A stretch of 64,000 nt of DNA from Candidatus Saccharimonadales bacterium (lineage in GTDB: Bacteria > Patescibacteriota > Saccharimonadia > Saccharimonadales > EFPC-124): NCBI GenBank assembly GCA_050730875.1, contig JBOHNX010000001.1, forward strand, positions 297,972-361,971, read 5' to 3'. Every line of letters starts with the position of its first letter. The first letter of the stretch is position 1. This document shows positions 2,908 to 38,436 of this stretch, in pieces. Under the pieces are notes generated by a model. That model was not told the origin of the DNA, made no database searches, and saw only the letters and a program-made list of their open reading frames with translations. A program made the translations under genes and the position numbers.

Positions 2908-2909
2908 CT

Positions 2910-3238: not shown

Positions 3239-3250
3239 GGTCTGCTGTCA

Positions 3251-3279
3251 ATACTACCTTAGTTGTAAAACCAGGTCAA
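3251..3279 (-). promoter_or_regulatory. Candidate sigma70-type promoter for secE-nusG
   Basis: Minus strand TTGACC (3279-3274), 17 nt spacer, TAGTAT (3256-3251). Confidence 0.35.
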
Positions 3280-3310
3280 GCATAGAGTGAACGTGTGCTA
3301 GCATAAAACC

Positions 3311-6476: not shown

Positions 6477-6504
6477 TTGGCTGTATTATCGCATAGCTTA
6501 AGCT

Positions 6505-7200: not shown

Positions 7201-7212
7201 GGTGGAGGCCTC

Positions 7213-7863
7213 CTATTGTATAATCACGTCGCGCCTGGTTGGCGGACGGCTTTCGGGCCCAGGACGTTGCACGCCGAGATGACGGTTTTCGGCTTTATGG
7301 GCATTTTCGGCCTCTGTAACATGTGGCCCGGCAAGCTTGCGGAGTACCATTTTCGCTTGTGTGCTGTAGGTGTGCTTGCCGCTAATCACGACATAGTGTT
7401 CGCGCGTGGGCGGCGTAAAGCGTCTTGCAAAAGTGGTAAATTGCTCTGAAGTGAGGCTGACACTGTACTGGTCATCTGTTCTCTTCGGGTTGCGCTTAGT
7501 TGCGCGCCATTTGGAGGTTGCTGGGTCAGTCTGAACCCAAATAACTAGTGTGCCATAGCCATGTTCTTTGGCGAGCTTCTCGATTCTTTGGCGCTGAACA
7601 CGAGTATTGCAGCAGCCATCTAACAGAAAACTGCGCTTGGTCTTAAGTAATTCACCGGCCTGATATTCTACGAGGCGCTGGAGTATGTCTTGCTCGTCGT
7701 TGGAGAAGTTAGGCTCAGAGAATAGCTCGTGCCGAAGACGATCAACATTTACCCAGGGTGCGCCAAACGTATCGGAAAATTGACGAGAGAAAAAGCTTTT
7801 CCCCACCCCTGGTGGGCCGACAACCATTAGAACAAGTGGACGTGTCAAGCTTACTGACTTCAT
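7213..7863 (-). CDS. P-loop ATPase/kinase (AAA_33-like)
   Basis: Walker A VVGPPGVGKSFFS. About 170-aa kinase-like core with a basic C-terminal tail. Confidence 0.6.
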   Translation of the reverse strand: MKSVSLTRPLVLMVVGPPGVGKSFFSRQFSDTFGAPWVNVDRLRHELFSEPNFSNDEQDILQRLVEYQAGELLKTKRSFLLDGCCNTRVQRQRIEKLAKEHGYGTLVIWVQTDPATSKWRATKRNPKRTDDQYSVSLTSEQFTTFARRFTPPTREHYVVISGKHTYSTQAKMVLRKLAGPHVTEAENAHKAENRHLGVQRPGPESRPPTRRDVIIQ

Positions 7864-7914
7864 TGTATTGCTATCATAGCAAATTTAGTATGAATTACCC
7901 TACCTCTCCGTCAT

Positions 7915-8136
7915 CTATTTGAGAAAATTTGGCACGCGCCCCCAGAATGCACGTACTTTTAAGGCAAAGGCTAGTAGCAGAATGCCTAAGATAAAGAACG
8001 ACGCTGCGACAATCGCAAACAGCAAGGCTGGGTACAGTACTATCAAGACCGCAAGTACGATAAACGCTGTGCCTTGTAGTACAAGCGTCCAGAACAAGTG
8101 GTTGACTGTATCTTTGACGAATTTGATTGCTTCCAC
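7915..8136 (-). CDS. Small two-TM membrane protein
   Basis: 73 aa with two long hydrophobic helices. No recognisable motif. Confidence 0.45.
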   Translation of the reverse strand: MEAIKFVKDTVNHLFWTLVLQGTAFIVLAVLIVLYPALLFAIVAASFFILGILLLAFALKVRAFWGRVPNFLK

Positions 8137-8205
8137 GAAACCCCCTTTAAGATGTTATGTTCGCTGGCTTCAGTATAACAAATGTTTTCAAGGAGGTTAG
8201 GCCAC

Positions 8206-8874
8206 CTACGAACTTAGCTTACCGTCTTGCAGTTGGAACACTTGGTCGGTACGGCCAGCAATGGTCAAATCGTGCGTTACTGCGACTATGGTGGTGTTCT
8301 CGGAACGAGCAAGTTTATGGAGCAAGTCAAAGATAACCTTACCGGTATTGCTATCTAGATTGCCGGTCGGCTCATCGGCGAGGATGAGTTTTGGCTTGTT
8401 AGCTAGAGCGCGGGCAATGGCGACTCGTTGTTGCTCACCACCAGAGAGGCGCGTTGGTTTGCGGTTTTGCTTCTCGCCGCTTAAACCAACTTGCTCCAGT
8501 AGTTCGATAGCCCGGGATCGTCGTTCTGCTGCCGAAATACCGGCAAATTCCATGGGTAGCATGACGTTTTCTATGGCGTTAAGGTTTGGCACAAGATTGT
8601 AGTGCTGGAAGACGAAGCCGATGATATCACGGCGGTACGCAGTCAGGCGACGATCGGACAGTTTGGTTATGTCGACGTCGTCTACGGCTATACGACCGCT
8701 CGTTGGCTTATCGAGCGCACCGAGCAGTGCAAGGAGCGTGCTTTTGCCACTCCCGCTTTTCCCAATGATAGCTGCGAAAGTGCTCGAAGGGATGTCAAAG
8801 CTGATGTCATCCACTGCTTTTACGGTTTGATCGCCTGAACGGAATTGTTTTGATACGTTTGTAACCTGTAACAT
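8206..8874 (-). CDS. ABC transporter ATP-binding protein (MacB/LolD/FtsE-like)
   Basis: Walker A GKSGSGKST, signature LSGGEQQRVAIARAL, Walker B LILADEPT. Confidence 0.9.
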   Translation of the reverse strand: MLQVTNVSKQFRSGDQTVKAVDDISFDIPSSTFAAIIGKSGSGKSTLLALLGALDKPTSGRIAVDDVDITKLSDRRLTAYRRDIIGFVFQHYNLVPNLNAIENVMLPMEFAGISAAERRSRAIELLEQVGLSGEKQNRKPTRLSGGEQQRVAIARALANKPKLILADEPTGNLDSNTGKVIFDLLHKLARSENTTIVAVTHDLTIAGRTDQVFQLQDGKLSS

Positions 8875-8875
8875 C

Positions 8876-10276
8876 TTACTCTCCTCTTAAAACTTCTGCT
8901 GGGCGGACCTTAGCGATTAACCAAGCTGGTACAGCACTCCCGACAATTGCTATGCCAAGCGCCGCAAGCAAGCCGTACGCTAATGTGCTGAGCCCAATAT
9001 TGGTTGTCATAGTGCCAACGAGGTCTCGAGCATTCTGTCCCTCCATGCCTGGTGCGCCAAAGCGGACAGCATTTGGCCGGGCGCCACGCTCGGGGCCAGC
9101 AGAAACTGACGGCCCATCGTCCGTACTTGCCGCTTGAGACGCGTTGGTGTTAACGAGTGCGTTGGTAATACCATTGCCTGTTGCTACGGCAAAACCCATG
9201 CCAACCACTGCGCCCATCATGACGAGCACAATCGCTTCAACGATAAACTGCGCCACAATGCCGTGGTTTGAACCGCCAATGGCTTTGAGTACACCAATTT
9301 CGCGGCGGCGTTCGCGCACAATCATAAGCATGCTTAGGAAGATAACGGTTGCCGCGGCACCAAGAGCGACCACGAAGCCTACAATCGAGATTTGCTCGAC
9401 GCTTTTCAGGCCGTTCACTGCTTCCATGGCGTTTTCTTCAGTTGCTGTAACGTCGGCTTTATCTTCGCCGAGTGCTTTTTTAATGGCCGCGACGGTTGCA
9501 TTAAGGTTGTCTATAGAATCTACCTGAACGTTGATAGCAGAGATTTCGTCGCCAGCTCCAGCAAGGCGTTGTGCAGTTGCAAGAGGTATGTAAACCGAGT
9601 CGTTTGCAAACTTAGTGCCTGCGTCGAAGATGCCGACTACGGTAAATGTTTCGCCATACGCCTTAAAGGTTGAATCAATCTTCAGATTATTCTTTTCGGC
9701 CAAAGATTTGCCAATAACCGCGACATTTTTATCGTCATCTTTTAGCTGACGACCTTGGATAACATTGATACTCTTGCCATCCTCGGTTCTGTTGCCGCTG
9801 ATACCGCCGCCGTGGATTGGCAGTTTAAACTCTCCGCCGTCAGCTCTATCGCCGCTTACGTGGAGTCGTTCGCCAATTGTGCCTGGTTTGATGGATGATT
9901 CTAGATTGGTCTCGCCGGCTTTGGGACCACTGCTCCCAATGAACATTTTTGGACCGCCAGAACTATTACCCTCAGTTTCGAGCATGAAGTTAAGGAGAAC
10001 GCTGGTTTCAGCAACATGTGCTACTTGTTTGACTTTATCGGCATCAGCACTCTTTAGCGGTTCACCGCCGCCTTGCATATTAGCTGAGCCAGCCGGGCGG
10101 ACAAACAGATTTGTGCCTACTTTTGTTTTAAGGTCGTCAATTCGCGCCTTCACTGCTTGGTTGGCCAACAACATGGAAAGAGCTAAACCCATACTGATCG
10201 CTAAAATTAATACTATCGAGCTGGTACGTATACCATTGCGGAAGGCGTTTTTCACGCCCCGGACAATTACACTCAT
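8876..10276 (-). CDS. ABC transporter permease, FtsX/MacB-type
   Basis: N-terminal TM, large extracytoplasmic domain and a C-terminal FtsX-like 3-TM bundle (REIGVLKAIGG). Adjacent to the ATPase. Confidence 0.85.
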   Translation of the reverse strand: MSVIVRGVKNAFRNGIRTSSIVLILAISMGLALSMLLANQAVKARIDDLKTKVGTNLFVRPAGSANMQGGGEPLKSADADKVKQVAHVAETSVLLNFMLETEGNSSGGPKMFIGSSGPKAGETNLESSIKPGTIGERLHVSGDRADGGEFKLPIHGGGISGNRTEDGKSINVIQGRQLKDDDKNVAVIGKSLAEKNNLKIDSTFKAYGETFTVVGIFDAGTKFANDSVYIPLATAQRLAGAGDEISAINVQVDSIDNLNATVAAIKKALGEDKADVTATEENAMEAVNGLKSVEQISIVGFVVALGAAATVIFLSMLMIVRERRREIGVLKAIGGSNHGIVAQFIVEAIVLVMMGAVVGMGFAVATGNGITNALVNTNASQAASTDDGPSVSAGPERGARPNAVRFGAPGMEGQNARDLVGTMTTNIGLSTLAYGLLAALGIAIVGSAVPAWLIAKVRPAEVLRGE

Positions 10277-10339
10277 ACGGTTCCTTCGTTTAGGTTATGA
10301 GCGTAGTAAATAGGATTGTTCTGAGAAAAAGCTGAAAAT

Positions 10340-11338
10340 CTACACTAGGGGCAACTTCACAGTAAATGTTGAGCCTTTGCCGGGGCGGCTGACGACGCTA
10401 ATATTGCCGTCCATTTCTTCTATAAATTTCTTCGCAATGGCCAGCCCTAAGCCGTGGCCTTCAATTCGCTCTTTGCTGCGCGAGGTGTCGGCGCGGTAAA
10501 AACGGTCGAAGATATGCGCTTGGTCGGATTGTTTAACGCCATAGCCTTGGTCTCTCACTGTGACATAGCCATGTGTACCTTTTGCGAAGGTCGCCAGCGT
10601 GATGGTAGTGTTTTTAGGGCTGTACTTGATGGCGTTATCGATCAAAATACCGATGACCTTTTCAAGTTTGAACGCTGAAGCTTTGACTCTGACTGGTTTA
10701 ATATCGCATTTGGCTGTTATATTTTTGGCCTCGGCAAGCGATCGCAGCCGTTTACAAGTAGCGGTGGTGATTTCGTCTAGCGCAACAGGTTCGGCAGCGT
10801 CATCGGTTTCGCGCGCCAAGGTAAGGAGTGCCTCCGAGAGCGCGCTTAAGCGGTCAACTTCTTCCAGGTTGCTCTTTAGCAGCTCCTCTGCCTTCTCTTT
10901 CGTTAGGTTCTTATCGCGCAAGGCGACTTCTATCTCTGTTTTCATGGCTGCCAGTGGTGTGCGCAGTTCGTGCGAGGCATCGGCAGTAAAACGATTTTGA
11001 GCTTCGAGCGCCTCTTCGATTGGGCGCATAGTGCGTTTGGCTAGCATAAAGCTTGCAATGGCCCCGGCGCCCAGTACAAACAGGTTGAGATAGATCAAAT
11101 TAGCTAACAGTGTGCCACGACTTGCCTGTAGCTGTTCATCTGCTAAGCTTCGTACAACATGCAGTTTATTGGCATTTGGTGCGAACGGTTCTTCGAGTGC
11201 AATGGTTTGCCGTTCCAACCCTTCGCGCAGTTGCACGGTTGCCTCACGATAAATCCACGCACTAAACAGAATGCTAATCGCCATAATGATGACGACGTAC
11301 CATGCAGTTAGCCGGAGATATGCGGTGTTAAACATCAT
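10340..11338 (-). CDS. Sensor histidine kinase
   Basis: FTADASHELRTPL H-box and GHGLGLAIAKKF G-box. Overlaps the upstream response regulator by 4 nt. Confidence 0.85.
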   Translation of the reverse strand: MMFNTAYLRLTAWYVVIIMAISILFSAWIYREATVQLREGLERQTIALEEPFAPNANKLHVVRSLADEQLQASRGTLLANLIYLNLFVLGAGAIASFMLAKRTMRPIEEALEAQNRFTADASHELRTPLAAMKTEIEVALRDKNLTKEKAEELLKSNLEEVDRLSALSEALLTLARETDDAAEPVALDEITTATCKRLRSLAEAKNITAKCDIKPVRVKASAFKLEKVIGILIDNAIKYSPKNTTITLATFAKGTHGYVTVRDQGYGVKQSDQAHIFDRFYRADTSRSKERIEGHGLGLAIAKKFIEEMDGNISVVSRPGKGSTFTVKLPLV

Positions 11339-27805: not shown

Positions 27806-27828
27806 AGCCCCTGTTATACGGCACATGC

Positions 27829-27903
<75 letters not shown>

Positions 27904-27905
27904 TG

Positions 27906-29561
27906 TTAACAAGCTGGGATAGTGAAGCGGTCAAACACGGCTGACTGTAAATCAGCTGGCATTCGCCTTCGGGGGTTCGAATCCCTCTCCCAGCACCATT
28001 CTTGACAAATTGCCTCTTCGGAGGCTTTTTTCATCTGTTCAGGCATGGTTCTAACCTTTTCTAATTCGTCTCGTAGGCGTTTTGCAACGTTTCTGACAGG
28101 TATAAGCCAGCCGTTAGAGGTGATCTCTAGCTTTCCGTTCACGAGGACGGGGTTCTGACCAATCGCAAGCAGTATATCCTTCTTATTTCCCAAATCTCCG
28201 CTAACAAACTTCTCGCCAGCATAGGTTAGTTTTTCAAAGGTATCTGAGGCAACTTCATACCAGTTGCGAACTCTGTATGCTGTATCGGCTTGTTCGTCCT
28301 GTAATCTCTTCAAATCTGCTCTGAGGGCTATGTTTTTAGCCTTATAATCATCCTCTGCAATAAGTCCCCGAGTAACCATATCTAGCAACTTGTCTAGCTG
28401 CGCTTGTAGGCTAGTGATTGTATTATTTTGCATGACTTGAGTATTGTTGCGGTCTTCAACTTCTTGCTCCGCCATATCCCTAAATGCTTCCATTGCCCAA
28501 TCATAAAGCTTGGGGACTAACTCGTATCCATCTAGTAGATTAAGGACATCTTTGTAGAGTTCGTTTTCTTTCACATAGATACTCTTCTGGCTACAGCCCT
28601 TACGTTTGCCGGTGCAATGGTAGTACGTGTGAAGCCTAACATCTCCGCTTGCCAATTGTTTTCTCTTACTCTCTGCCGTAACCAGACAGTCACACTCACC
28701 GCAACGAATAAAGCCTCTCAATGCAAACTGTTTACGACTTGCCAGACGGGGCAGACCCCTCCTGCCTAACAAGACTTGTACTCTGTCGTACTCCTCCATA
28801 CTTATCATGGCTGGGAAGTCAGCTTTGTATAAGTTATCTGGGTCGTATGGATCAGGCACAAAGCCAGCGTTTCTTACATTACGAAAAAGGTTATAGAGGC
28901 TTGTGCGGGACATCGGTACGCCACCACTCCTACTACGCTTGACGGTTGTATAACCCCAGTCCTCAGTCATTATCTTCAATATGCTGTTAACGCTATATTC
29001 GCCGGTTAAGTAAAGATCAAAAGCCTTGCGGACTAGCGGAAAACGCTCAGGGTCTATAACTATCTTCTTATCCACGTTCAGAAACCCCTCGTGTGCTCTT
29101 CCTGTAAGCTGACCAAGTTGACGCTTCTTTTCGTTACCACGCCTTATATCTTTGCTCAGTTTTGCGGAAAAGTATTGCGACTGGCTCATAGTCATTTGCA
29201 ACATCATTATGCCCTCAGGAGAGTTATCAAAGTTGTAGCTTGCGAACCGTAAGTCTTTGATAATGCCTCTGGTAACACGATGACTTATTTCCGCTGCGTC
29301 TATAGCATTACGTGATAACCGATCAGGGTGCCATGCAATAACTCCGTCAATCTCTCCACTATCAAGCATGTCCATTATTTTCCTAAACTCCGGACGCTTG
29401 TAGGGTTCAAACGCACTCATACTCTCTTCAACATATTTAAGAATGTTAAGATCGCTGAATTGTTTTTGGATGTTGTCGTGTTGTGCCGCTTTTGAAAGCA
29501 CTTGACGTTCTACGTCCTCACTGGACTTTCTGATATAAGCTATGTAGCGTAATTTGTTCAT
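27906..29561 (-). CDS. Large serine recombinase (integrase). The last 46 codons read antisense through the terminator and tRNA-Tyr.
   Basis: Resolvase domain YIAYIRKSSEDVERQ...WHPDRLSRN, recombinase domain, zinc-ribbon CGECDC...YYHCTGKRKGC and coiled-coil. The tail WERDSNPRRR..ADLQSAVFDRF is a tRNA antisense translation. Confidence 0.9.
   Translation of the reverse strand: MNKLRYIAYIRKSSEDVERQVLSKAAQHDNIQKQFSDLNILKYVEESMSAFEPYKRPEFRKIMDMLDSGEIDGVIAWHPDRLSRNAIDAAEISHRVTRGIIKDLRFASYNFDNSPEGIMMLQMTMSQSQYFSAKLSKDIRRGNEKKRQLGQLTGRAHEGFLNVDKKIVIDPERFPLVRKAFDLYLTGEYSVNSILKIMTEDWGYTTVKRSRSGGVPMSRTSLYNLFRNVRNAGFVPDPYDPDNLYKADFPAMISMEEYDRVQVLLGRRGLPRLASRKQFALRGFIRCGECDCLVTAESKRKQLASGDVRLHTYYHCTGKRKGCSQKSIYVKENELYKDVLNLLDGYELVPKLYDWAMEAFRDMAEQEVEDRNNTQVMQNNTITSLQAQLDKLLDMVTRGLIAEDDYKAKNIALRADLKRLQDEQADTAYRVRNWYEVASDTFEKLTYAGEKFVSGDLGNKKDILLAIGQNPVLVNGKLEITSNGWLIPVRNVAKRLRDELEKVRTMPEQMKKASEEAICQEWCWERDSNPRRRMPADLQSAVFDRFTIPAC
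27913..27998 (+). tRNA. tRNA-Tyr (anticodon GUA), long variable arm, CCA encoded
   Basis: Acceptor GCTGGGA/TCCCAGC, anticodon stem GCTGA/TCAGC with loop CUGUAAA, a 14-nt variable arm, T arm GGGGG-TTCGAAT-CCCTC. Confidence 0.9.
28012..28031 (+). terminator. Intrinsic terminator of the tRNA-Thr/Tyr transcript
   Basis: GCCTC-TTCG-GAGGC followed by TTTTTT. Confidence 0.55.
28032..28055. repeat. Left copy of imperfect 24-bp direct repeat (candidate attL; 9-bp identical core GGTTCTAAC at 28047-28055)
   Basis: CATCTGTTCAGGCATGGTTCTAAC matches 39317-39340 CATTTGTTACAGTAAGGTTCTAAC at 18/24 positions, including a 9/9 core. Confidence 0.5.
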
Positions 29562-29592
29562 TGTTTTCTCCTAACAAAAAGGACGGCTGGTT

Positions 29593-29692
29593 GTTCACAC
29601 AGTCCATAGCACGAAGCCATTTCCTGATACCAGCCGCCCATTTTGGGTCGGGAAATAAAAACACTTCGTGCGTGTTTATGGCTTGTGTGAAC
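29593..29692. repeat. Imperfect inverted repeat upstream of the recombinase gene
   Basis: GTTCACACAGTCCATAGCACGAAG (29593-29616) versus the reverse complement of 29664-29692, GTTCACACAAGCCATAAACACGCACGAAG. Confidence 0.45.
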
Positions 29693-29729
29693 ATTTTTAT
29701 ATTAACTCGTTAATGTTTGATTGTACATA

Positions 29730-30245
29730 CTAGTCGCTTTGTTCTCTCATCAGCTCTACAACTTTTAAGTATCGCTTGGTAGGTTGACCACTATAGGTTC
29801 TAGTTCGTAAGTGCTTCATGTGTTTTTCGGCTCGTTCATATCTATCAAGCTCTCTCTGCATGGGGTAGATTGCTGAACGCCTGCTTCTTTTGCGTGATCG
29901 GTATGTAAGATTGTGACAGTGCCTACACCGATATTGTCCGATGAGGTACAGCTTGCCAACTCGCCGATTACATGTTGGACATAACATCCACCATCTTACA
30001 CCGCCGAAATAGCATGGTGTTTGAGTTAGGTGTATGGTTTGGGTTCGCTCCAAATTTTCATCCGGTGAATAGGTTATCTTTATTCTAGGACTCTCTCCTA
30101 AGATAACTAGCACATCCGCCGTATGGTCTTTTCCGTAAACCGTAGTCGTTAGCGTAGTCTGAAATCCATTTTTGAAGAAAATATTTTCGTTAGCCACGTA
30201 CACTAATGTATCTAATTCAGTCTTTCTTGCGTCGGATCGTGTCAT
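29730..30245 (-). CDS. Hypothetical zinc-ribbon protein
   Basis: CYFGGVRWWMLCPTCNRRVGKLYL..YRCRHCHNLTY (CxxC..CxxC) with a basic tail. Confidence 0.5.
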   Translation of the reverse strand: MTRSDARKTELDTLVYVANENIFFKNGFQTTLTTTVYGKDHTADVLVILGESPRIKITYSPDENLERTQTIHLTQTPCYFGGVRWWMLCPTCNRRVGKLYLIGQYRCRHCHNLTYRSRKRSRRSAIYPMQRELDRYERAEKHMKHLRTRTYSGQPTKRYLKVVELMREQSD

Positions 30246-30284
30246 AGAAAACGCCTATATACGAAATCATTAGCAATTCGTTTA

Positions 30285-30503
30285 TTAACCAGATACAGAA
30301 ACATCGTCTTTTTGCTCCATTTTCGTTAGTTTTAACTGTCTTTTACGTGTTTCTTTAGCTAGTGCAAACCTCATAATTGCTAGTCCTGCTTGCTGTGCTT
30401 GTTCGTCGCTGTAGTCCAGCCCAATATCTTTAAGCAATTCTTTTAAGGTGGTTAGACGTTCAGGCTTGAGTCGCATAGTAAGCTCCAAATATCGCCCGAA
30501 CAT
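30285..30503 (-). CDS. Small helical protein (possible DNA-binding/excision accessory factor)
   Basis: 72-aa ORF (or 63 aa from the Met at 30476). No motif recognised. The function given is a guess from size and context. Confidence 0.35.
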   Translation of the reverse strand: MFGRYLELTMRLKPERLTTLKELLKDIGLDYSDEQAQQAGLAIMRFALAKETRKRQLKLTKMEQKDDVSVSG

Positions 30504-30644
30504 CCTTACAACCTATATTTATCCTTAAACAGACCTTTATAAAGGTAAGTATCGTTATAGAGATACCCTTATATATACAGTTATCTATATATAGAGGCTG
30601 TTTAATATAAGAATATAGGCGGGGTTTCTTTTGTGTTTTCATAG

Positions 30645-30995
30645 CTAGAATGGCACGTCATCAAGGTTTATAGGTTCTTCTAGATCCTTGTCAGTTGGCT
30701 CGTACACTTTGTCGTGTTGTTTTGGTGACGGATCGTAGTCTCCGATGGCTTGTAGGCATTTCTCCTCAAGCCGTGCCCAGAAGTCGGTCTTTGTACTAAA
30801 TTCTGGCACGTGTATCCATTTATGGTTTATTTGCTGTGCGGGTGGTTGTACCCAATAACCCGAAGTGTTACGGTCAGATTCTCGGGCGGTAAAGCCGTCC
30901 ACATACATTCCAATGCTAGTTACATTTACTTTCAGGCGGTATCCTTTGTTAATCTGTCCCCGTACCTCAATCTCAATGCCGTACTCGTCATCCAT
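30645..30995 (-). CDS. Hypothetical protein
   Basis: Start chosen at the ATGGATGA overlap with the upstream stop (30988-30995). The ORF track start at 31031 is less likely. Confidence 0.45.
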   Translation of the reverse strand: MDDEYGIEIEVRGQINKGYRLKVNVTSIGMYVDGFTARESDRNTSGYWVQPPAQQINHKWIHVPEFSTKTDFWARLEEKCLQAIGDYDPSPKQHDKVYEPTDKDLEEPINLDDVPF

Positions 30996-31257
30996 TGCAA
31001 GCCTCCAGAATTTCATCCCGAATATGGTCAAGCTGTACGGCTAGGTTATCTATCAGTTCTTTTGCGTTTGAGTCTGCAAGATCAATAGAGACACTGGCAA
31101 GCTCATGTTTAGCTTGTTGCTCAAACATGTCATTTACTGCTAATCCAAGCCTTAGGTGGTAAGCAGGGCTCTTCCACTGGTCGCCAACCTTTCTCTGTAC
31201 CAAATATCCATACAACTTATGGTGTTGGATACGCCACTTTTTATAAATTATTGTCAT
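30988..31257 (-). CDS. Hypothetical protein
   Basis: 89-aa ORF, translationally coupled to the next gene. Confidence 0.45.
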   Translation of the reverse strand: MTIIYKKWRIQHHKLYGYLVQRKVGDQWKSPAYHLRLGLAVNDMFEQQAKHELASVSIDLADSNAKELIDNLAVQLDHIRDEILEACNG

Positions 31258-31273
31258 TTTGTCTTTCTGGCAT

Positions 31274-31298
31274 AAAAATGCCCGTTATGTTTACGGGC
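31274..31298 (-). terminator. Intrinsic terminator after the 31332..32051 gene
   Basis: Minus strand GCCCG-TAAACATAA-CGGGC followed by ATTTTTAT. Confidence 0.5.
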
Positions 31299-31331
31299 TT
31301 ATTTCTATAACTATAGGTAGCTGAAAAGTTT

Positions 31332-32051
31332 TCAGCCGTTTTCTAAGAGTTCAGGATCAATGTAGAAGATTAACTTCGTTATTTTTATAAGGTTTCTGCC
31401 ATCAGTAACCTCTTTAAGCTTCTGGTTTATTGCAGCGACATGATTTTTCGCTTGCTTACGTTGAAAGGGCTTAAGTTCATCGTTAATAACACCTCTAGAA
31501 TTCACAATTTTTCGCAGTGGGACACCATTTTTTAGGCTATTGACGTCATTGAAGAGAAGACGCATTGCACGTGCTTGCATAGGCTCATTTCTGGGATTGC
31601 CAAGCCTGTTCTTTTGACTAACTATTGCGACCTGTTTTCCATTAATAAACAGAGTCGCTGTATTAGCTTTGTAGCTCTGTGGTGTAAGCTTTCGCTCTGG
31701 GCTAAGGTTAGACTCGTAGAATTTACTAAAGCTGGGTAAAACCTCAATATGAAAATATGAGTCAAAGTAGTCAGGGTCTTCAATGACTTCATCACCTACC
31801 ATTTGGAGTAAAGTAGGGTGTTCGCGTTTTGGCTTGGGGATTTCGTCGTACGGTGGCTTTTTTACTGCGATGTGCCCAGAAGATTGTAGCTTATTCAGTG
31901 CATATCTAAATTGAGCATGGACGTCTCCATCAAAAACCGTGTAGACTGCCCCATAATCAAGTTTTATAGTGTTGCCATCTGTTAGTTCGTTTATGCTGTG
32001 GATACGCTCCACAAGCCATCGCATTCTCTCAGCCGAAGTTTTCAAAGCCAT
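31332..32051 (-). CDS. Hypothetical protein
   Basis: 239-aa ORF with no recognised motif. Confidence 0.5.
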   Translation of the reverse strand: MALKTSAERMRWLVERIHSINELTDGNTIKLDYGAVYTVFDGDVHAQFRYALNKLQSSGHIAVKKPPYDEIPKPKREHPTLLQMVGDEVIEDPDYFDSYFHIEVLPSFSKFYESNLSPERKLTPQSYKANTATLFINGKQVAIVSQKNRLGNPRNEPMQARAMRLLFNDVNSLKNGVPLRKIVNSRGVINDELKPFQRKQAKNHVAAINQKLKEVTDGRNLIKITKLIFYIDPELLENG

Positions 32052-32111
32052 ACTATGATTTTAGAGCAGTATCTACTCTTATCAAACCAATGTATGCAAT
32101 AATAATTGTTA

Positions 32112-32272
32112 AGTGGTAGCACCACTCATGATCTAGAGCCGCTCGCAAGAGAAGGTATGATCAAAAATCCGGTAAAGAATACTGAGCTAGTCGTTCAGGT
32201 ATCTTTACCGGTTGCACGCCGAAAGGTGTGTAGGGGTCGCAAGACTCCGCTTGGCGGCTAGCTTTTTGTTTG
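32112..32272 (+). ncRNA. Candidate structured RNA / 5' leader with multiple GNRA-capped hairpins
   Basis: Hairpins at 32112-32126, 32142-32151 (GCAA loop), 32169-32211 (~15 bp), 32215-32230 (CACGCC-GAAA-GGTGTG) and 32233-32248 (GGGGTC-GCAA-GACTCC), then a T-run at 32263-32271. Confidence 0.3.
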
Positions 32273-32307
32273 TCGCCGAACATTATTGACAGTAAAGGCG
32301 GCAACGA

Positions 32308-32985
32308 ATGAAAAAGCTTGGTTATTGGAAGTCACGTAAGGAATGGAAACGGCTAACTCAGGGCATGAGTCCCGATCAGGTCACCCGGCTCAAGCAAAGT
32401 CTTTCACAAGGCGACGAAGCTACAATTGCAGCTATTGCTGAAATACAAGCAGAGCAAAGAGAAGCCTTGCATGCTCAAGGCATAGATTACGGCAATACTA
32501 CACCCGAAATTGGGAAGGAAATACAGTGGAGTGATGTTTTGAGCATGGTGTTCCGTGTTATAGATTTTGATAGGAATGACACTACTGTAGACCTAGATGG
32601 TGGTGCAGAAACAGTAAAAGCAAAAAGCCAATTTCAACCTTATGGGTACCTACTTATTGAGTCACCCACGCTGAACCAACCTGTTGGATTACCGATAGTA
32701 CACAATAATGACTACTGGCTTGCTGCAAGCGTTTTTGATGATCCTGATGTTATTCGAGTTAAAGAGGAGCAAGGTAGAGAGCTCCTTGTTACCTATCAGC
32801 CAGAAAAAACTTTACGTGATGGACGCAACGGAAGTATGCAACACTGTTTGCACTTCGCACTTGTACCGTCAGGAACGTTAGAAAGATATTACGAAGACGA
32901 CAAACGAATGGCTAGACCAGAGCCAGAATTATTATTTGGAAAGTTTGTTTATAGTGGTGAAATAAGAGTGCGTATGGCAGCGTAG
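32308..32985 (+). CDS. Hypothetical protein
   Basis: 225-aa ORF with no recognised motif. Confidence 0.5.
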   Translation: MKKLGYWKSRKEWKRLTQGMSPDQVTRLKQSLSQGDEATIAAIAEIQAEQREALHAQGIDYGNTTPEIGKEIQWSDVLSMVFRVIDFDRNDTTVDLDGGAETVKAKSQFQPYGYLLIESPTLNQPVGLPIVHNNDYWLAASVFDDPDVIRVKEEQGRELLVTYQPEKTLRDGRNGSMQHCLHFALVPSGTLERYYEDDKRMARPEPELLFGKFVYSGEIRVRMAA

Positions 32986-33001
32986 CCCTATAATTAGCCC
33001 T

Positions 33002-33592
33002 ATGCAAAACAAACCTAACTCCACATTATTGTTCCGTCTTTCAGATGAACTCATAACCAACTTCACTTCTATAGATGGAAAACGACCTGTTTTCTATTGG
33101 TTCAGCGACTGTTATCACAGTCACATCTACGGAAACTCACCGGGAGCAGACTTTATGTACTTCTTCATTGTTGATCCGGCGAAAAGCGACGCCAAGTTAT
33201 TTACTCGTCACGACACAGGAGATTTTGGAAGCATGTGGGTTGATTACTCGCAGTATCTTGAAGCACGTAATGAAAATGAGAAACAAGGCATCAAGAAGTA
33301 CCTTGAGCCCGGTATCGTCTACTCATTTAGCGAACTTCAACCGGCTGTAGTCGGCAAGTTTGTGGACGGTTTCACGCTTTGGGCAAAGACAATAGACGAG
33401 TCAAAAGAGGTGACCTTTAGTTTGGTTGGGAATGGCAAGTTCAGGCGATTTGATGAGATACCAGAGCTAATAGACCTACTGCCCGAGATTGCTAGTGCCG
33501 TGCCGGTTATGCAGCCTACATCCGAGCAAGTCGCTGATCCGTCTAGCTTCTGGGCTGCCGATACATCCAATCAGGGTCGGATGTGGCTATAA
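33002..33592 (+). CDS. Hypothetical protein
   Basis: 196-aa ORF with no recognised motif. Confidence 0.5.
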   Translation: MQNKPNSTLLFRLSDELITNFTSIDGKRPVFYWFSDCYHSHIYGNSPGADFMYFFIVDPAKSDAKLFTRHDTGDFGSMWVDYSQYLEARNENEKQGIKKYLEPGIVYSFSELQPAVVGKFVDGFTLWAKTIDESKEVTFSLVGNGKFRRFDEIPELIDLLPEIASAVPVMQPTSEQVADPSSFWAADTSNQGRMWL

Positions 33593-33595
33593 TTC

Positions 33596-34249
33596 CTATA
33601 CTAAGTGTTCAGTGCCTTTGACCACATCAACCACCTTACCGGCGACTTGATAATGCTGAAAGTCTTCGTTAGCGATAATAATCGGAGGATAAGGATAGTG
33701 CGATTCAGACTGCAGTACTACCCGTTGGTGGGCATCATCCCTCTGGAACTTCTTAATATTAGCCATGCCGTCAATGATGGATACAATATAGTCATTTTTA
33801 TCCGGTACGTATGGGTCACGTTTTTCGACCAGTACATAATCACCGTCTTCAATTGTTTTACCGTTGATGTTTGCTCTGTTCATTGAATCACCACGAGCGA
33901 CTAACGAGTATACGCCTTTTGTGGTGCTAATTTTGGTGGTGCTAGGAGAGAGTGTCAAATAACCCTGAATAACATCAGATGCGAAGCGAGTAGCTTCACC
34001 ACAATCAGCTTCGCCGAGAACCGGTATTGATAGTACATTGTTTTGGAGGAGACCCGGACTTTTTGTTGATACCACCAACGAGCCGTCGGTCTTCCGGGAT
34101 AGGTAGCCGTTCTTAATCAGCTGGCCGATATGGTGCTGGACTTGTGAGGCGTGTTTGCAGCTCACTCGCTCACCAATTTGGCGGTATGACATACTACCGA
34201 GGTCAACCAGAGAACCGAGACTTAACAGCCTTTTTTGTACTTCATGCAT
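33596..34249 (-). CDS. LexA/CI-like repressor (wHTH plus S24 peptidase domain)
   Basis: N-terminal wHTH (YRQIGERV..ASQVQHHIGQLIKNGYL). S24 catalytic Ser in ARGDSM and Lys in ANIKKF. Start moved to the Met at 34249, downstream of the predicted promoter. Confidence 0.8.
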   Translation of the reverse strand: MHEVQKRLLSLGSLVDLGSMSYRQIGERVSCKHASQVQHHIGQLIKNGYLSRKTDGSLVVSTKSPGLLQNNVLSIPVLGEADCGEATRFASDVIQGYLTLSPSTTKISTTKGVYSLVARGDSMNRANINGKTIEDGDYVLVEKRDPYVPDKNDYIVSIIDGMANIKKFQRDDAHQRVVLQSESHYPYPPIIIANEDFQHYQVAGKVVDVVKGTEHLV

Positions 34250-34260
34250 CTTCACCCCTG

Positions 34261-34298
34261 ATTGTATCAGGTTTCTGGACACTGTACAATCCTGTACA
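34261..34298 (-). promoter_or_regulatory. Repressor promoter overlapping tandem CTGTACA operators
   Basis: Minus strand TTGTAC (34289-34284), 17 nt spacer, TACAAT (34266-34261). CTGTACA at 34282-34288 and 34292-34298, each containing the TGTACA palindrome. Confidence 0.4.
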
Positions 34299-34529
34299 TT
34301 TACAATGCGCTACCGGTATGGTATTGTTGAACTTAACCTAGCTATAAAACGCAAAATTCTTTTGTCGAGGGTAGTTACGGGGAGCGGCGCAAGCCACGTT
34401 CGTTAAAAAGGCGGACTATGAAAAAGCACCGGCTTTTGGCCGATGCTAGCGTACACCGTTGGTACCGAGTACGCTTCTTAGTCTACTGTAACCAATCATT
34501 AATGGCCAGACTAAGGAGGAATAACACCT

Positions 34530-34763
34530 ATGGCTCACAAACCTAACATTCATACGACCTACAGCAAACAGGCCAGTAACTGGCGTAACGTCACCGAAGG
34601 CGCAACCCGCCCGGGCAAGACATACGAGACCAAGCAGCAGGCTCAGGCGGCCGGACGTGATATGGCTAAAAGCCACCACGTTGAACACTTGATTCACAAT
34701 AAAGATGGTGAAATTGGCTCCCGTAACAGCTACGGCCATGACCCTAGAAATGTAAAGGGGTAA
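34530..34763 (+). CDS. DUF2188 family protein
   Basis: W.V..EGA.R....Y.TK.QA..AGR..AK......L.IH..DG.I......YG.DP pattern. RBS AAGGAGG. Confidence 0.7.
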   Translation: MAHKPNIHTTYSKQASNWRNVTEGATRPGKTYETKQQAQAAGRDMAKSHHVEHLIHNKDGEIGSRNSYGHDPRNVKG

Positions 34764-34766
34764 ATC

Positions 34767-35252
34767 ATGTCTGCTGATACTGCACTTACGATCACTCAGA
34801 TCGTGTGGCCACTACTGGGCGGCGTATTTGCCGCGTCGGTTTGGCTTCGCTTCTTTCACAAGAAGGAGCGTCGGCTCTTCAAGAACATCCAGCGACCTGT
34901 TGCTGTTATAGCCACCGACGACAAACCTATGACTCATGAAGTTCAGCTGCTCAAGCGTGTCGGCTTCTTCAACATCGGTACTCCATCTGCGGATGGACGA
35001 GCGAAGGACTTACTTAACGGCAATCGTCTTGTAGTTATTGGCTACAGTCCTAACTCCAAAATCTTCAAAGAGGTGTTCGCTGCGGCCGCACAGCGAGAGA
35101 TGCCAGTAATAGTCTATGCTGCACCCGGTGAGATTAGGCCGGAAGACATTAAGCTTTTACAGGGCTATTCTCATCACTCAATGTGTAATACCCCGCTACG
35201 CCTTATATCTGATGTATTTGCCATGATGAGCACGTACCCGGAGGACAAGTAG
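34767..35252 (+). CDS. Single-pass membrane protein with cytoplasmic alpha/beta (flavodoxin/TIR/receiver-like) domain; candidate effector
   Basis: TM segment ITQIVWPLLGGVFAASVWLRFF, then alternating beta/alpha segments (VAVIATDD, LVVIGYSP, MPVIVYAAPG). The fold assignment is a guess. Confidence 0.45.
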   Translation: MSADTALTITQIVWPLLGGVFAASVWLRFFHKKERRLFKNIQRPVAVIATDDKPMTHEVQLLKRVGFFNIGTPSADGRAKDLLNGNRLVVIGYSPNSKIFKEVFAAAAQREMPVIVYAAPGEIRPEDIKLLQGYSHHSMCNTPLRLISDVFAMMSTYPEDK

Positions 35253-36272
35253 ATGACCGATGAAGCGATAAATCAAGTAGTTAACAAGTACGTAAAAGAC
35301 AACCTGTCTCCTAAGCCCGCCCAGCGAGACTTCATTACCGAAAAATACGAAGAACTTAGGGGTTTTCTGGGAGGTCGCTGCTTTCAGTCAGGCTCTTACG
35401 CCCGCTACACAGCAATCGATCCTGTGCATGACTTGGACGTCATATATCCCGTAAGTGATGCCTCTGTTAAGGATAATCCCTCTCTGTTGCTGCGGAACCT
35501 GCTAGCAAACTTACAGCTGAAGTACAAAAACTCAACAACTAAAATCAAGCGGATATATGCACAGACCCACTCTGTAACCATCGAGTTTGAGGGATCACCT
35601 GAAGAAACTTTCAGCATTGATGTTGTGCCCGCCATCGAACTAGCAGAAAAAAATGATTATGAGCAGCCGCTGTATCAGGTGCCTGAAATTGTCAAACTAA
35701 ACAAGCACAACCGCGAGGAACGGTATAAAAACGCTTCAACTAATCCTATTGGTTGGATCAAATCTGACCCCCGTGGTTATGTACAAGCTGCTTACGAATT
35801 GAACGATTTAAATGCGAATTTTCGACACGCCACCAAATTACTCAAGGGCTGGAGACATGCTTGCAAGATCGCTTACGGGGATAGTTTTCGTCTCAAATCT
35901 TTTCATCTTGAGCAGATAGTTTATGCATACTTCGTCGAAAATCCCGGATGTACCACCGTAGAGGCTGTAATTGATTGCTTGGCCGCCTTGCCGGGCGACA
36001 TAAACGAACCACAGTTTACGGATCGTGCGGATGCTACTCGTTATATTGACGAGTACGTTGCCGGGCTAAGCCGGGATGAACGACAGTTAATCTTGCGCCT
36101 ACAGGCTGAAGCTTTCTCTTGCGTAAGGCAGATACCTGCCTCGACCGACGAGCAAGCAATAATTCACTGCTTAGAGTCACTCATAACCGTCGACAAGCAA
36201 AGCTCTATGACACCTGTATTCGCCGCACCATCACCACGTTCGGTTGCACCCCATCAACCTTGGGCGTGCTGA
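35253..36272 (+). CDS. CD-NTase/SMODS-like nucleotidyltransferase (pol-beta superfamily)
   Basis: GS motif QSGSYARYTAI, DxD in HDLDVIY, third acidic residue in FSIDVVPA, then GWIKSDPRGY...ATKLLKGWRH, typical of cGAS/DncV-like enzymes. Confidence 0.7.
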   Translation: MTDEAINQVVNKYVKDNLSPKPAQRDFITEKYEELRGFLGGRCFQSGSYARYTAIDPVHDLDVIYPVSDASVKDNPSLLLRNLLANLQLKYKNSTTKIKRIYAQTHSVTIEFEGSPEETFSIDVVPAIELAEKNDYEQPLYQVPEIVKLNKHNREERYKNASTNPIGWIKSDPRGYVQAAYELNDLNANFRHATKLLKGWRHACKIAYGDSFRLKSFHLEQIVYAYFVENPGCTTVEAVIDCLAALPGDINEPQFTDRADATRYIDEYVAGLSRDERQLILRLQAEAFSCVRQIPASTDEQAIIHCLESLITVDKQSSMTPVFAAPSPRSVAPHQPWAC

Positions 36273-36283
36273 GCGAGCATGGC

Positions 36284-37012
36284 ATGTGGACTAAGAGCGA
36301 TCTAGCTTGGCTTAGTAAGAACTACCCTGAACTCAAGCAAAAGCAGCCCAATACTATTGAGGGCAGACTGACTTTTCAGATGCTACGAGCCAACGGGCTT
36401 TACGTGGTAAATCCCTCAGCTAAACAAATTCAGGATCTTTCGCCTCCAGACTACCTTTACTTGTGCGACACGTACAAAATCCGGATTGCATGGCCTAAAG
36501 ATGCCCGTTTTCCGACAGCCCACGAAACCGGAGGCAAACTAGCGGCAACAGCGAAACGACTTAATAAAAATCTGCTGGATATGCATCAGTACCAAGAAGA
36601 TGGCAGCCTTTGCTTGGCTGCAACTATGCAGCTAGAGCGTACCTTTCGTAAAAAGTTCAAGCTTGATGCGTTTGTTGAAGAGTTCATGATTCCTTATCTA
36701 TTTGCGCAGACCCACTATGCTAAGACCGAGGAATGGCTGTGGGGTGAACTAGAGCATGGATCTTGGGGTCTTTTACAATGGCTTGGCCGGGAAAAACAGT
36801 ACGATGATGCAGATACTTTTGCGACCTACGCCTATGTTAAAAGTCAGATAGGTGAAGATGCTACCCATAAACTTTTGAAGATTCGACCGCGTGGTCACTA
36901 CGCTTGTCTCTGCGGATCAGGTAAGAAAACACGCGACTGCCATCCCGACGTCCAACAAGGCATAATTAGGCTTCGGGGTGCGGTAAGTCGTCATATTATT
37001 AAGCTCAATTAG
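36284..37012 (+). CDS. E2/UBC-like protein with C-terminal SEC-C zinc motif
   Basis: HQYQEDGSLCLAA resembles the UBC HPN...G.ICL active-site loop. C-terminal CLCGSGKKTRDCH is the SEC-C motif (compare SecA CPCGSGKKYKQCH). An alternative GTG start at 36266 overlaps the upstream stop. Confidence 0.55.
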   Translation: MWTKSDLAWLSKNYPELKQKQPNTIEGRLTFQMLRANGLYVVNPSAKQIQDLSPPDYLYLCDTYKIRIAWPKDARFPTAHETGGKLAATAKRLNKNLLDMHQYQEDGSLCLAATMQLERTFRKKFKLDAFVEEFMIPYLFAQTHYAKTEEWLWGELEHGSWGLLQWLGREKQYDDADTFATYAYVKSQIGEDATHKLLKIRPRGHYACLCGSGKKTRDCHPDVQQGIIRLRGAVSRHIIKLN

Positions 37013-37027
37013 TTTTACAATGGGTGT

Positions 37028-38221
37028 ATGTTCACTCACCTAAAAGACCGGCAATATTACGAAGACCTATATGATAAATTTACTGTGGAGTCAGCTCGTC
37101 GTGGTATGGTTTACTACGATGATTTTTATGCCGACTTTGAAAACAAACTTCCGAAGGGTGAGAAGATTGATAAGCCCGGCAACGCTTTCCTATTGAATGT
37201 CTTCTATATGGAGACTGTAGGAAACGAGCTGCTTCGCCGCTACGAAAAGCGTGGTGAACAAATCAGTGAATGGATTGAGAGAGACGAAGCGAAAAATGAA
37301 CAAATATCATCAGCTCGACTTTCTGAAGAGCCTCGCTGTCAACATTGTGGCAAGCAAGGGCTACGAATTACAGACAAATCACTCATGCATAGGAGTAAAA
37401 GCTACAAAATCGGTGACCCTGAGGAAGTGCTTTTCATGTTGCGATGTCCTCATTGTGACAAGAACTGCGCATTTTGGGAGGACGGTACAGCGTGGAAGGT
37501 TAAACCAACTATATGTCCGAGGTGTAAGTCTGAAGTAACGCACAAGACCACAAAAACCAAGAAGACCATTACGATTACATACACATGCATCTCCTGTAAA
37601 CATAGCTTTAAGGACAAACTGGACTTATCCAGCGAGAAAGAGAAACCTGACCCCGATTTTGACAAAGATCGCATCCACTTCTGTCTCGTAGACGAGGAGT
37701 TTCGCGAACGACTCTTCAAAATGAGGCATGACTTTATAGAGATGGCTCGGCTCGGCAAGGAGTTCAAAGAAAAGAAAGACAACAAGCACATATACGATGC
37801 CGTAAAAGAAATGAAGAAGCCAAAGATTGCCGAATTGTCTGCCATACTTGCTCCAGCACTTGAAAAGGCCGGTTACATTGAGTTTAGTCTTGATAAACCA
37901 GAAATGGGTAAAGATGTATTCATCGGCTTTAACTGCCTTGATTGTAAAAGCGACCGCGGCGACTATGATAGCGAGAAGACTCTGAAGAAAACTGTAGAAA
38001 AAGCCCTGATTAGTACTAACTGGCGGTTAATGAGCGAGGGTATCCATTACCGACTTGGTTACCTGAACGGGCGGTTGCGTGCATATGAGCGTGAAGAAGA
38101 TCTCAAGAATCTTGTAATAAAAGATAAGAGGCTAAAACCCAAAAGCAGTCATGCTACTAAGCCAGACAAGGATAATTCATGGCGGCTTAAAGCCAACGAT
38201 GGAACTGACATCCTCTTATAG
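37028..38221 (+). CDS. Multi-zinc-ribbon protein of unknown function
   Basis: CQHC..(x34)..CPHC and CPRC..(x21)..CISC, plus a later CLDC, within a K/E-rich helical region. Confidence 0.5.
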   Translation: MFTHLKDRQYYEDLYDKFTVESARRGMVYYDDFYADFENKLPKGEKIDKPGNAFLLNVFYMETVGNELLRRYEKRGEQISEWIERDEAKNEQISSARLSEEPRCQHCGKQGLRITDKSLMHRSKSYKIGDPEEVLFMLRCPHCDKNCAFWEDGTAWKVKPTICPRCKSEVTHKTTKTKKTITITYTCISCKHSFKDKLDLSSEKEKPDPDFDKDRIHFCLVDEEFRERLFKMRHDFIEMARLGKEFKEKKDNKHIYDAVKEMKKPKIAELSAILAPALEKAGYIEFSLDKPEMGKDVFIGFNCLDCKSDRGDYDSEKTLKKTVEKALISTNWRLMSEGIHYRLGYLNGRLRAYEREEDLKNLVIKDKRLKPKSSHATKPDKDNSWRLKANDGTDILL

Positions 38222-38408
38222 ACGGGGGTGCTATTTTTCTGGGTTAAGTGAGATGGTACCTAAGCGCATCTAGGGGGTGTGGGGTGTTGCCTCAGAAATA
38301 ATTTTAAGAGCACAGCCACCCCTGTTAGTTTGCTTGCCTTTCTCTGTTCTAAACTGTAGAATAATCAAGTAGCATTGTTCTGACCTTGCAAAGAACAGTG
38401 CACCAATG

Positions 38409-38436
38409 AAAAAGCCCACCTCTAGGTGGGTCTTTT
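38409..38436. terminator. Bidirectional intrinsic terminator
   Basis: AAAAAG-CCCACC-TCTA-GGTGGG-TCTTTTC, with A-run and T-run on both sides. Confidence 0.6.

Follow-up and report, generated by a model that had tools for sequence, protein, structure and literature searches.

A 64,000-nucleotide (nt) stretch of DNA from a Candidatus Saccharimonadales bacterium (GCA_050730875.1, contig JBOHNX010000001.1, positions 297,972 to 361,971; the whole stretch is called the window below) carries a full-length member of the LOOT RNA family (Rfam RF03000) at 32130-32248 on the plus strand. The structure of 32112-32272, in which this element lies, is real, strand-specific and far beyond chance, and it represents a known orphan family, not a new RNA class. 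We propose, with a probability of roughly 60%, that the LOOT RNA serves here as a promoter-proximal leader with a pseudoknot-type terminator, so that only read-through transcripts would reach the cargo genes behind it.

An Rfam scan, which had been suggested as a check in the preliminary description of this region, identified 32130-32248 (plus strand) as LOOT with a score of 69.7 bits against a gathering score of 46.4 (E = 4.8e-11). The match spanned the whole model, positions 1-121 of 121, and the RNA is thus a catalogued element. When the entire window was scanned with the curated Rfam thresholds, four tRNAs and LOOT were found and nothing else; no riboswitch family was above its Rfam threshold anywhere in the window, and ARAGORN placed neither a tRNA nor a transfer-messenger RNA (tmRNA) at the LOOT position. 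The minimum free energy (MFE) fold of 32100-32280 (plus strand) was -76.1 kcal/mol in comparison with a shuffle mean of -48.5 kcal/mol (z = -6.97), and 0 of 200 shuffles folded as well, while the minus strand folded far less well (z = -3.46). All five hairpins described earlier were reproduced in this fold, and the T-run at 32263-32271 and the ATG at 32308 were also present as placed. The z value and the LOOT match together bore out the earlier claim of a conserved, folded, GNRA-rich non-coding RNA on the plus strand. The Rfam alignment and the fold showed the family's complete order in the window, namely P1 with P1a, an A-rich linker, a long P2, a GAAA-capped P3 and a GNRA-capped P4. The parts of the window RNA and its promoter are the following, all on the plus strand.

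32079-32106, plus strand: sigma-70-like promoter, with -35 box TTATCA at 32079-32084, a 16-nt spacer and -10 box AATAAT at 32101-32106 (9 of 12 consensus matches)
32112-32126, plus strand: 5' hairpin AGUGGU-AGC-ACCACU (in DNA, AGTGGT-AGC-ACCACT), seen in sequence and fold, outside the Rfam model
32130-32248, plus strand: LOOT core (RF03000), full length, from the covariance-model match
32130-32133 with 32159-32162, plus strand: P1, from the Rfam alignment, with the internal loop UAGA/UAU
32138-32155, plus strand: P1a hairpin, containing CTC-GCAA-GAG with its GCAA loop at 32145-32148
32163-32168, plus strand: A-rich linker AAAAAU between P1 and P2
32169-32211, plus strand: P2, a long hairpin whose 10-bp lower stem pairs CCGGTAAAGA (32169-32178) with TCTTTACCGG (32202-32211)
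32182-32198, plus strand: P2 apical hairpin CUGAGC-UAGUC-GUUCAG, 6 bp, from the fold and the Rfam alignment
32184-32195, plus strand: strand A of the long-range helix, GAGCUAGUCGUU, overlapping the top of P2 and pairing with 32253-32264
32213-32232, plus strand: P3, an 8-bp hairpin (TG)CACGCC-GAAA-GGTGTG(TA) with its GAAA tetraloop at 32221-32224
32233-32248, plus strand: P4, a 6-bp hairpin GGGGTC-GCAA-GACTCC with its GCAA tetraloop at 32239-32242
32253-32264, plus strand: strand B of the long-range helix, GGCGGCUAGCUU, in the 3' tail past the end of the Rfam model
32263-32271, plus strand: T-run TTTTTGTTT (U-tract UUUUUGUUU in the RNA), overlapping the end of strand B; candidate termination or attenuation point
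32272-32279, plus strand: segment C, GUCGCCGA, for which 8 bp are possible with 32251-32258 (UUGGCGGC)

LOOT was reportedly first described from ocean metagenomes and guessed to be a trans-acting small RNA (sRNA); to our knowledge, no classified organism was known to bear it in 2018. The Rfam type line for the family is 'Gene; sRNA'. The collection of 224 motifs of Weinberg et al. (2017; PMC5737381) presents LOOT in the supplement only, the Rfam 14 paper (PMC7779021) shows the family, which rests on metagenomic sequences, the Rfam 15 paper also mentions it, and the CaCoFold paper comments on its many 'cross-covariations'. In the literature searched, LOOT appeared only in database and method papers, and no study of what it does, which hosts carry it or where it lies was found. 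The tail helix, the U-tract, the leader position, the hosts from the candidate phyla radiation (CPR) and the recombinase or prophage context described below were in neither the Rfam model nor any paper found.

Relatives were collected from species-representative genomes with the pattern CCTAAAC...GCATGG...AAAA...CC.....AG, which matched at least 120 stretches. About 105 of the 120 stretches listed have the full LOOT layout, and 18 of 18 sampled loci were above the Rfam threshold (67-94 bits); the matches in cultured isolates were false positives. Conservation and covariation, which had also been proposed as checks, were both found: there are at least about 105 further genome copies, and the long-range helix and P3 covary according to RNAalifold and pair counts. 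By record title, the LOOT copies among the matches listed comprised about 80 from Patescibacteria or CPR, about 10 unclassified 'bacterium' bins, about 10 'uncultured Gammaproteobacteria' and a few others; the CPR lineages among them included Saccharibacteria, Paceibacterota, Gottesman-, Levy-, Woese- and Roizmanbacteria. Most relatives were from CPR genome bins of groundwater, soil, lake or host-associated origin, and the window LOOT was 84% identical to the copy in a Saccharimonadales genome bin (L204). Ten bins labeled 'uncultured Gammaproteobacteria' carry LOOT (L180, L185, L186, L190, L199, L201, L225 on an 876-kb contig, L243, L263 and L272); either these labels may be wrong, or LOOT elements extend beyond the CPR. 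Some genomes hold several copies (L179 with L222, L202 with L238), and locus L263 has tandem copies on the minus strand at 4087-4203 and 4341-4465, 137 nt apart, scoring 89.6 and 77.1 bits.

A MAFFT alignment of 100 sequences (A1) was used for the comparison within the family. In P3, 8 of 8 pairs covaried and 96% of cells were paired. The P3 loop was GAAA in at least 92 of the 100 sequences, the rest being mostly alignment shifts of GAAA. The P4 loops were GCAA in 39, GAAA in 28, UUCG in 6 and GUAA in 5 members of the family. Positions C4, T5, A6, A8, A28, T29 and G30 were invariant, the window included. The AAAA of the linker was also invariant in A1 and is upper-case in the Rfam consensus, and this AAAA belonged to the genome search pattern.

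The evidence that carries the terminator part of our proposal lies past the P4 hairpin, where the Rfam entry ends and the window copy continues with a tail helix and a U-tract. Across the family, the tail is complementary to the top of P2 (typical tail GCUGGCGGCGAGCUUUGUGUUU, typical P2 top GCUCGUCGUCAG), and in the window 12 contiguous pairs, four of them G-U, join 32184-32195 to 32253-32264. RNAalifold chose this long-range helix unprompted from A1. Family-wide it comprises 14 pairs with 93.8% of cells paired, and 12 of the 14 pairs were changed on both sides; the variants at one of them were GC 38, CG 36, AU 13, UG 9 and UA 3. None of 500 shuffles reached the observed values for the whole tested structure, and slid controls were only 35-46% paired. 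A test that used no alignment gave the same picture, since the tail of each locus formed a median 12-bp helix with its own P2 top and beat swapped tails (Mann-Whitney p = 4e-40). The helix is strand-specific because of its G-U pairs, and because it crosses the P2 lower stem, the pairing of strands A and B makes a pseudoknot. An extended model would improve annotation, since the current Rfam model stops before the tail.

The tail helix and the P2 apical hairpin compete for the top of P2 (32184-32195). The energy of the tail duplex was -22.3 kcal/mol in the window and -23.2 kcal/mol in the median of the family, and that of the local apical hairpin was -7.0 kcal/mol in the window with a family median of -5.7 kcal/mol, so that the tail duplex was about 17 kcal/mol more stable in every locus. 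The local apical hairpins, although weak, nevertheless beat shuffles (median z = -2.3) and were 73% paired in the alignment. The 10 nt after strand B contained 5.6 T on average across the family, in comparison with a background of 3.0. In one subfamily (L058, L176 and others), the tail forms a plain hairpin of its own followed by a U-run at the same position. This tail hairpin resembles the P2 top in sequence, a likeness that may be behind the reported cross-covariation. A helix like that of segment C was present in 45% of loci against 11-24% in controls and is a feature of a subset only.

The leader part of the proposal is supported by the surroundings of the RNA. The preliminary description had placed it like a 5' leader, and this held: a promoter-like site lies just upstream, the next gene starts (ATG 32308) 43 nt after strand B, and the layout recurs, the nearest downstream gene being co-directional in 91 of 96 loci, mostly 25-65 nt past strand B. 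The upstream gene was divergent in 60 of 92 loci. The transcription start in the window would be at about 32112-32113, at the first hairpin and 17 nt before LOOT P1. The sister island L286 has TATAAT at the place of the window -10 box, and about 100 other LOOT loci have a -10-like box and then a conserved ACAATT, 10-20 nt before P1. In many loci (for example L001, L058, L173, L188, L189 and L193) the -10-like box is followed by ACAATT(n)AAT, a motif with which the transcript probably starts. The window and L286 are without it and have the hairpin AGUGG...CCACU there instead; L286 keeps the stem AGUGG/CCACU with a changed loop, and most other LOOT loci lack this hairpin. This hairpin would either be the structure with which the transcript opens or act in the DNA as a palindromic operator. 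The genes next to the RNA in the window are the following.

31332-32051, minus strand: 239-aa divergent gene (open reading frame, ORF); a 256-bp gap containing the RNA separates it from the 225-aa gene
32294-32298, plus strand: likely Shine-Dalgarno sequence AAAGG before the 225-aa gene
32308-32985, plus strand: 225-aa gene (ORF), the first behind the RNA
33002-33592, plus strand: 196-aa gene (ORF), the second behind the RNA

None of the 225-aa, 196-aa and 239-aa proteins had a match in Pfam, PHROGs, PADLOC, NCBIfam or the sequences of the PDB. The 225-aa protein has 131 homologues, all hypothetical, and the few records that carry a name come mostly from genome bins of Paceibacterota and Komeilibacteria; among nine loci fetched for five of these homologues, LOOT was found only in L286 and L291. 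In L291, LOOT heads an operon of about 15 genes, the first of which starts 23 nt behind it. Over the family the downstream proteins were hugely varied, with 51 of 84 being singletons and many being small membrane or secreted proteins. A promoter-like site on the minus strand, TTGATA-16-TAAAAT at 32085-32058, would serve the 239-aa gene; it ends 7 nt before the ATG (32051), which suggests a leaderless or near-leaderless mRNA.

The body of the RNA also resembles a known tertiary contact. The 11-nt receptor for GAAA tetraloops, which occurs in group I and II introns and RNase P, has the consensus CCUAAG/UAUGG (PMC11381326, PMC2615604). The LOOT family shares with this system a near-invariant GAAA loop, P3 being almost always GAAA whereas the P1a and P4 loops vary, and a receptor-like internal loop in P1. 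The P1 region of the window reads GAUC-UAGA-(P1a)-UAU-GAUC, and the family consensus is CCUAAaC ... GCAUGG; the internal loop with its flanks is accordingly CCUAAA/CAUGG in the family, UCUAAA/UAUGG in L286 and UCUAGA/UAUGA in the window. The family loop retains the C-G pairs, the U and A of the UA handle, the AA platform and the bulged U of the receptor, while the closing G-U is replaced by A/C in the family and by A-U in the window, where the AA platform is also AG instead. The window loop thus varies at 4 of the 11 receptor-like positions, one pair among them being compensatory. Judging from these sequences, the P3 GAAA loop probably docks into the P1 internal loop. In comparison with LOOT as catalogued (PMC5737381, PMC7779021), the window copy differs by this P1 loop variant, UCUAGA/UAUGA in place of CCUAAA/CAUGG, and by the extra 5' hairpin.

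These observations suggest the following course of events. Transcription would run rightward from the site at 32079-32106, and its first product would be the small hairpin 32112-32126, followed by P1/P1a, P2, P3 and P4. The weak local hairpin at the top of P2 would form first during synthesis, and the emerging tail would then capture the P2-top strand (about -22 against -7 kcal/mol). Because a U-tract directly follows, the tail helix would act as an intrinsic terminator, the large 'loop' of which (about 60 nt) would already be folded by P2, P3 and P4. Most transcripts would end near 32268-32272 as compact RNAs about 155 nt long; only those produced by read-through would include the 225-aa and 196-aa genes. 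Pairing of segment C could leave the U-tract looped out in those read-through transcripts. Docking of P3 to P1 would give a rigid body, possibly a binding platform for a factor that tunes read-through.

In its GC-rich helix with an immediate U-tract, its position between promoter and first gene and its competing earlier hairpin, the element is similar to intrinsic terminators and attenuators, but about 60 nt separate its two strands, which enclose or cross three helices, and termination is here a prediction. Several points weigh against reading it as a leader with a terminator. A scan for terminators in the form of a local hairpin (loop of 3-8 nt) plus a U-tract was empty at 32250-32271, and a terminator whose helix strands are separated by about 60 nt and form a pseudoknot across P2 is non-canonical. 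Only 3-4 nt lie between the P2 stem and strand A, and the molecule with both helices fully formed may be strained. A G interrupts the U-tract of the window. With so large an energy gap, the helix may simply be a fixed element of the mature structure instead of a switch under regulation. The co-orientation with the downstream gene could mirror a fixed layout of the element and not regulation in cis, and the Rfam class is that of an sRNA gene. The docking of tetraloop and receptor would be a matter of resemblance only. The transcription start, the 3' end and the fraction of read-through were all inferred from sequence. Finally, the sample, having been fetched by a pattern, is partial and biased, and conservation at the positions of the pattern is circular.

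The RNA might instead be a stand-alone trans-acting sRNA: the island would produce a stable, terminated transcript of about 155 nt whose target lies elsewhere, such as a host or phage protein that it binds or sequesters or another RNA with which it pairs, while the downstream genes would be expressed independently of it. The Rfam type, the promoter-like site of its own, the terminator-like end in all subfamilies, the compact fold with a probable tetraloop-receptor contact, the tandem copies in L263 and the several copies in some genomes all fit such an RNA. However, a co-directional ORF follows in 91 of the 96 loci, typically 25-65 nt behind the tail; this tight spacing leaves no room for a separate promoter outside the RNA, and the downstream genes would therefore depend on the same promoter. 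A conserved single-stranded seed was not found either, the variable segments being all in internal helices. We consider an exclusively trans-acting role unlikely. The two readings are mutually compatible.

A switch that responds to a ligand or factor is improbable in our judgment. According to this explanation, the P1-P4 body would bind a small molecule or a protein, and this would select one of two states of the P2 top: the local hairpin, which permits read-through, or the helix with the tail, which causes termination. Both of these mutually exclusive pairings of 32184-32195 are above chance, unpaired nucleotides are invariant, the RNA stands in leader position, and the probable tetraloop-receptor architecture is shared with some riboswitches, GEMM-I being one. 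Against this, the tail helix is ahead by about 17 kcal/mol in every locus, which is unusual for a balanced switch, there is no Rfam riboswitch match and no association with the CBASS nucleotidyltransferase of the window (see below), and the downstream genes have no common function. The preliminary description had suggested a regulatory RNA or riboswitch-like leader. The leader stood, but the extreme diversity of the downstream genes (51 of 84 singletons) argues against a metabolite-specific riboswitch.

A minority of loci show a relation between P2 and the next gene that is reminiscent of the c4 RNA of phage P1 and the CI RNA of P4, which are antisense RNAs encoded in leaders with upstream and downstream target copies. 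Here the P2 3' strand (32202-32211) would give up its internal partner for a copy of that partner at the ribosome-binding site of the next gene and silence this gene. In about 15-20% of loci the P2 5' strand (9-12 nt, specific to the locus) is repeated exactly 2-10 nt before the next start codon; exact or near-exact repeats (8-9 of 9) were present in 19% of loci but in 1.8% of swapped controls, and complementarity was above the 95th percentile of the controls in 20% of loci. Such repeats were seen in about 16 loci, among them L175, L178, L184, L167, L169, L187, L265, L242, L258, L267 and L268, with the preceding A-rich stretch repeated too. A control region beside an integrase would suit such an RNA, and a control region of a temperate element is what LOOT shares with the phage systems. 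Nevertheless, the repeat is a feature of a subset, and LOOT has no similarity to those RNAs in sequence or model, an Rfam C4 match being absent. The duplication is absent or non-significant in the window and most loci: the window candidate GUAAAGG at 32292-32298 (best match 7 bp) is at chance level, L286 reads GCAAAGG and has not kept it, and four other loci that share this P2 sequence do not have it. An immunity-type antisense leader is therefore a very improbable account of the window copy.

That the conserved element is not an RNA at all, and is instead a small basic protein encoded by the 34-codon ORF at 32157-32261 (opened by ATG 32157) or a DNA site such as an operator, recombination site or origin, is scarcely credible in spite of the perfect palindrome at 32112-32126 that could bind a repressor and of the divergent control region beside mobile-element genes, since the same conserved ATG gave a median of 9 codons in 107 copies (2 codons in 29 of the 107), the compensatory and G-U changes make sense only for a plus-strand RNA while the minus strand folds much worse, and no repeats define a recombination site. 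The small ORF, which the preliminary description had offered as an alternative, was rejected because it is not conserved across the 107 copies.

The LOOT RNA of the window is part of a mobile island. A complete public contig (Logan, SRR27067773; L284, positions 1-10461) of 10,461 bp was identical (100%) to window 27969-38429, which delimits a discrete island, and the GC content was lower across 28-40 kb. The features of the island and its left border are the following.

27906-29561, minus strand: large serine recombinase with Resolvase, Recombinase and Zn_ribbon_recom domains
27913-27998, plus strand: tRNA-Tyr, beside which the island starts
27969-38429: mobile island of 10.5 kb carrying LOOT, from the public contig identity and the GC dip
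33596-34282, minus strand: S24 (LexA/CI-like) repressor-like gene, convergent, which separates the LOOT-headed genes from the operon to its right
34530-38221, plus strand: operon of a cyclic-oligonucleotide-based antiphage signaling system (CBASS), island cargo, beginning with a DUF2188 protein
34767-35252, plus strand: transmembrane effector (PADLOC C3a59-like), CBASS operon
35253-36272, plus strand: CD-NTase (PDLC00785, E = 1.9e-84), CBASS operon
ending at 37012, plus strand: E2-like protein, CBASS operon
after the E2-like gene, plus strand: 397-aa zinc-ribbon protein, CBASS operon

Small genes without an assigned role lie between the recombinase and the LOOT region. The L284 contig starts inside the T-arm of tRNA-Tyr, and it may represent the island in excised or circular form, or else the assembly may have broken at the borders; a terminal overlap was not found in this contig, and no convincing direct repeats mark the ends of the island. 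The recombinase ORF reads through the complement of tRNA-Tyr, its last 28 codons or so being antisense to the tRNA. Given this overlap, the C-terminus may differ between the integrated and the excised state, or the attachment site may lie in the 3' end of the gene. The tRNA-Thr/Tyr region of the window (27828-27987) was 80% identical to that of a Patescibacteria genome bin (L259, about 335-487). Like the LOOT identity with L204 and the named homologues of the 225-aa protein, this similarity points to a CPR bacterium as host. In L259, a LOOT that breaks off inside P2 was seen at about 1600, about 1.1 kb from the tRNA-Thr/tRNA-Tyr region; it may be what is left of an element that integrated at the same site and has since decayed.

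The sister island L286 keeps the core genes, LOOT and the pair of 225-aa and 196-aa genes, the 225-aa protein being about 94% identical. Its cargo further right differs, and no SMODS or CBASS gene was called on that contig. The shared core and the different right-hand genes in comparison with window 33596-38429 indicate an exchange of cargo downstream of the LOOT-headed pair. The preliminary description had linked the RNA to cyclic oligonucleotides through the neighboring nucleotidyltransferase. This link failed: the CD-NTase, the transmembrane effector and the E2 protein had 0 tblastn matches in the other loci fetched (about 120, of which about 105 contain LOOT), L286 has no such gene called on its contig, and the S24 gene at 33596-34282 on the minus strand stands between. 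A connection with CBASS was rejected on these three counts.

Within the 8-kb fragments in which loci were fetched, and to which the counts of elements apply, 43 of 106 loci contained a large serine recombinase of one family, which in most cases was encoded on the opposite strand and began a few hundred nt upstream of LOOT. A small-terminase-like helix-turn-helix protein was found in 21 loci, an N6/N4 DNA methylase in 18 and a large terminase subunit (phrog_38, E = 5e-74) in 12. The window recombinase had tblastn matches in 50 loci at 28-33% identity. A tRNA gene was present in 22 of 60 LOOT fragments, which by a rough estimate is not clearly above expectation and was not used as evidence. A blastn search of the intergenic region against phage records gave only a chance match of 31 nt, and a fixed-spacing pattern of the 3' half found nothing in IMG/VR. 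The 5' pattern matched 120 IMG/VR stretches and the 3' pattern with tail matched 38, and the only real LOOT copies were L001 and L058; a tightened pattern matched 10 stretches, of which again only L001 (90.9 bits) and L058 (78.3 bits) were real. With only these two real copies under the patterns used, LOOT is rare in that viral collection. Both are small viral contigs in which LOOT adjoins a large serine recombinase and terminase and methylase genes are present, and L001 additionally has a type I restriction system. The island of the window is a small version of these LOOT-bearing, prophage-like elements, without the packaging genes.

LOOT together with its cargo resembles a moron-type unit next to the integrase of prophage-like elements in the CPR. 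With prophage morons, which are accessory units of promoter, gene and terminator, LOOT shares a promoter and variable accessory or defense genes next to an integrase; it differs in that the same RNA of about 150 nt heads unrelated cargo. We know of no conserved structured leader RNA that morons share.

The window copy itself is ordinary, and the comparison adds the host range, the mobile-element context, the leader position and an extra covarying helix to what was recorded for the family. The position of LOOT beside an integrase, together with the very varied cargo across the family, points to an expression gate that is indifferent to the gene behind it, and not to a sensor for one pathway. 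As an attenuator, if that reading is true, LOOT would explain how newly acquired, possibly toxic cargo is controlled, and it would provide a portable regulatory part for a group of bacteria in which genetic tools are very scarce. A broader suggestion, which we hold to be unlikely, is that LOOT is a gatekeeper RNA of CPR temperate elements, in the form of a pseudoknotted leader braced by a tetraloop-receptor contact: by default, transcription would terminate before any cargo, such as defense systems or membrane and secreted proteins, and it would be released by a signal of the host or the element, which could be a bound protein, a small molecule or a modification of RNA polymerase. If true, LOOT would represent a gene-agnostic cis-regulator of a new class and would open the first functional access to the control of prophage genes in the CPR.

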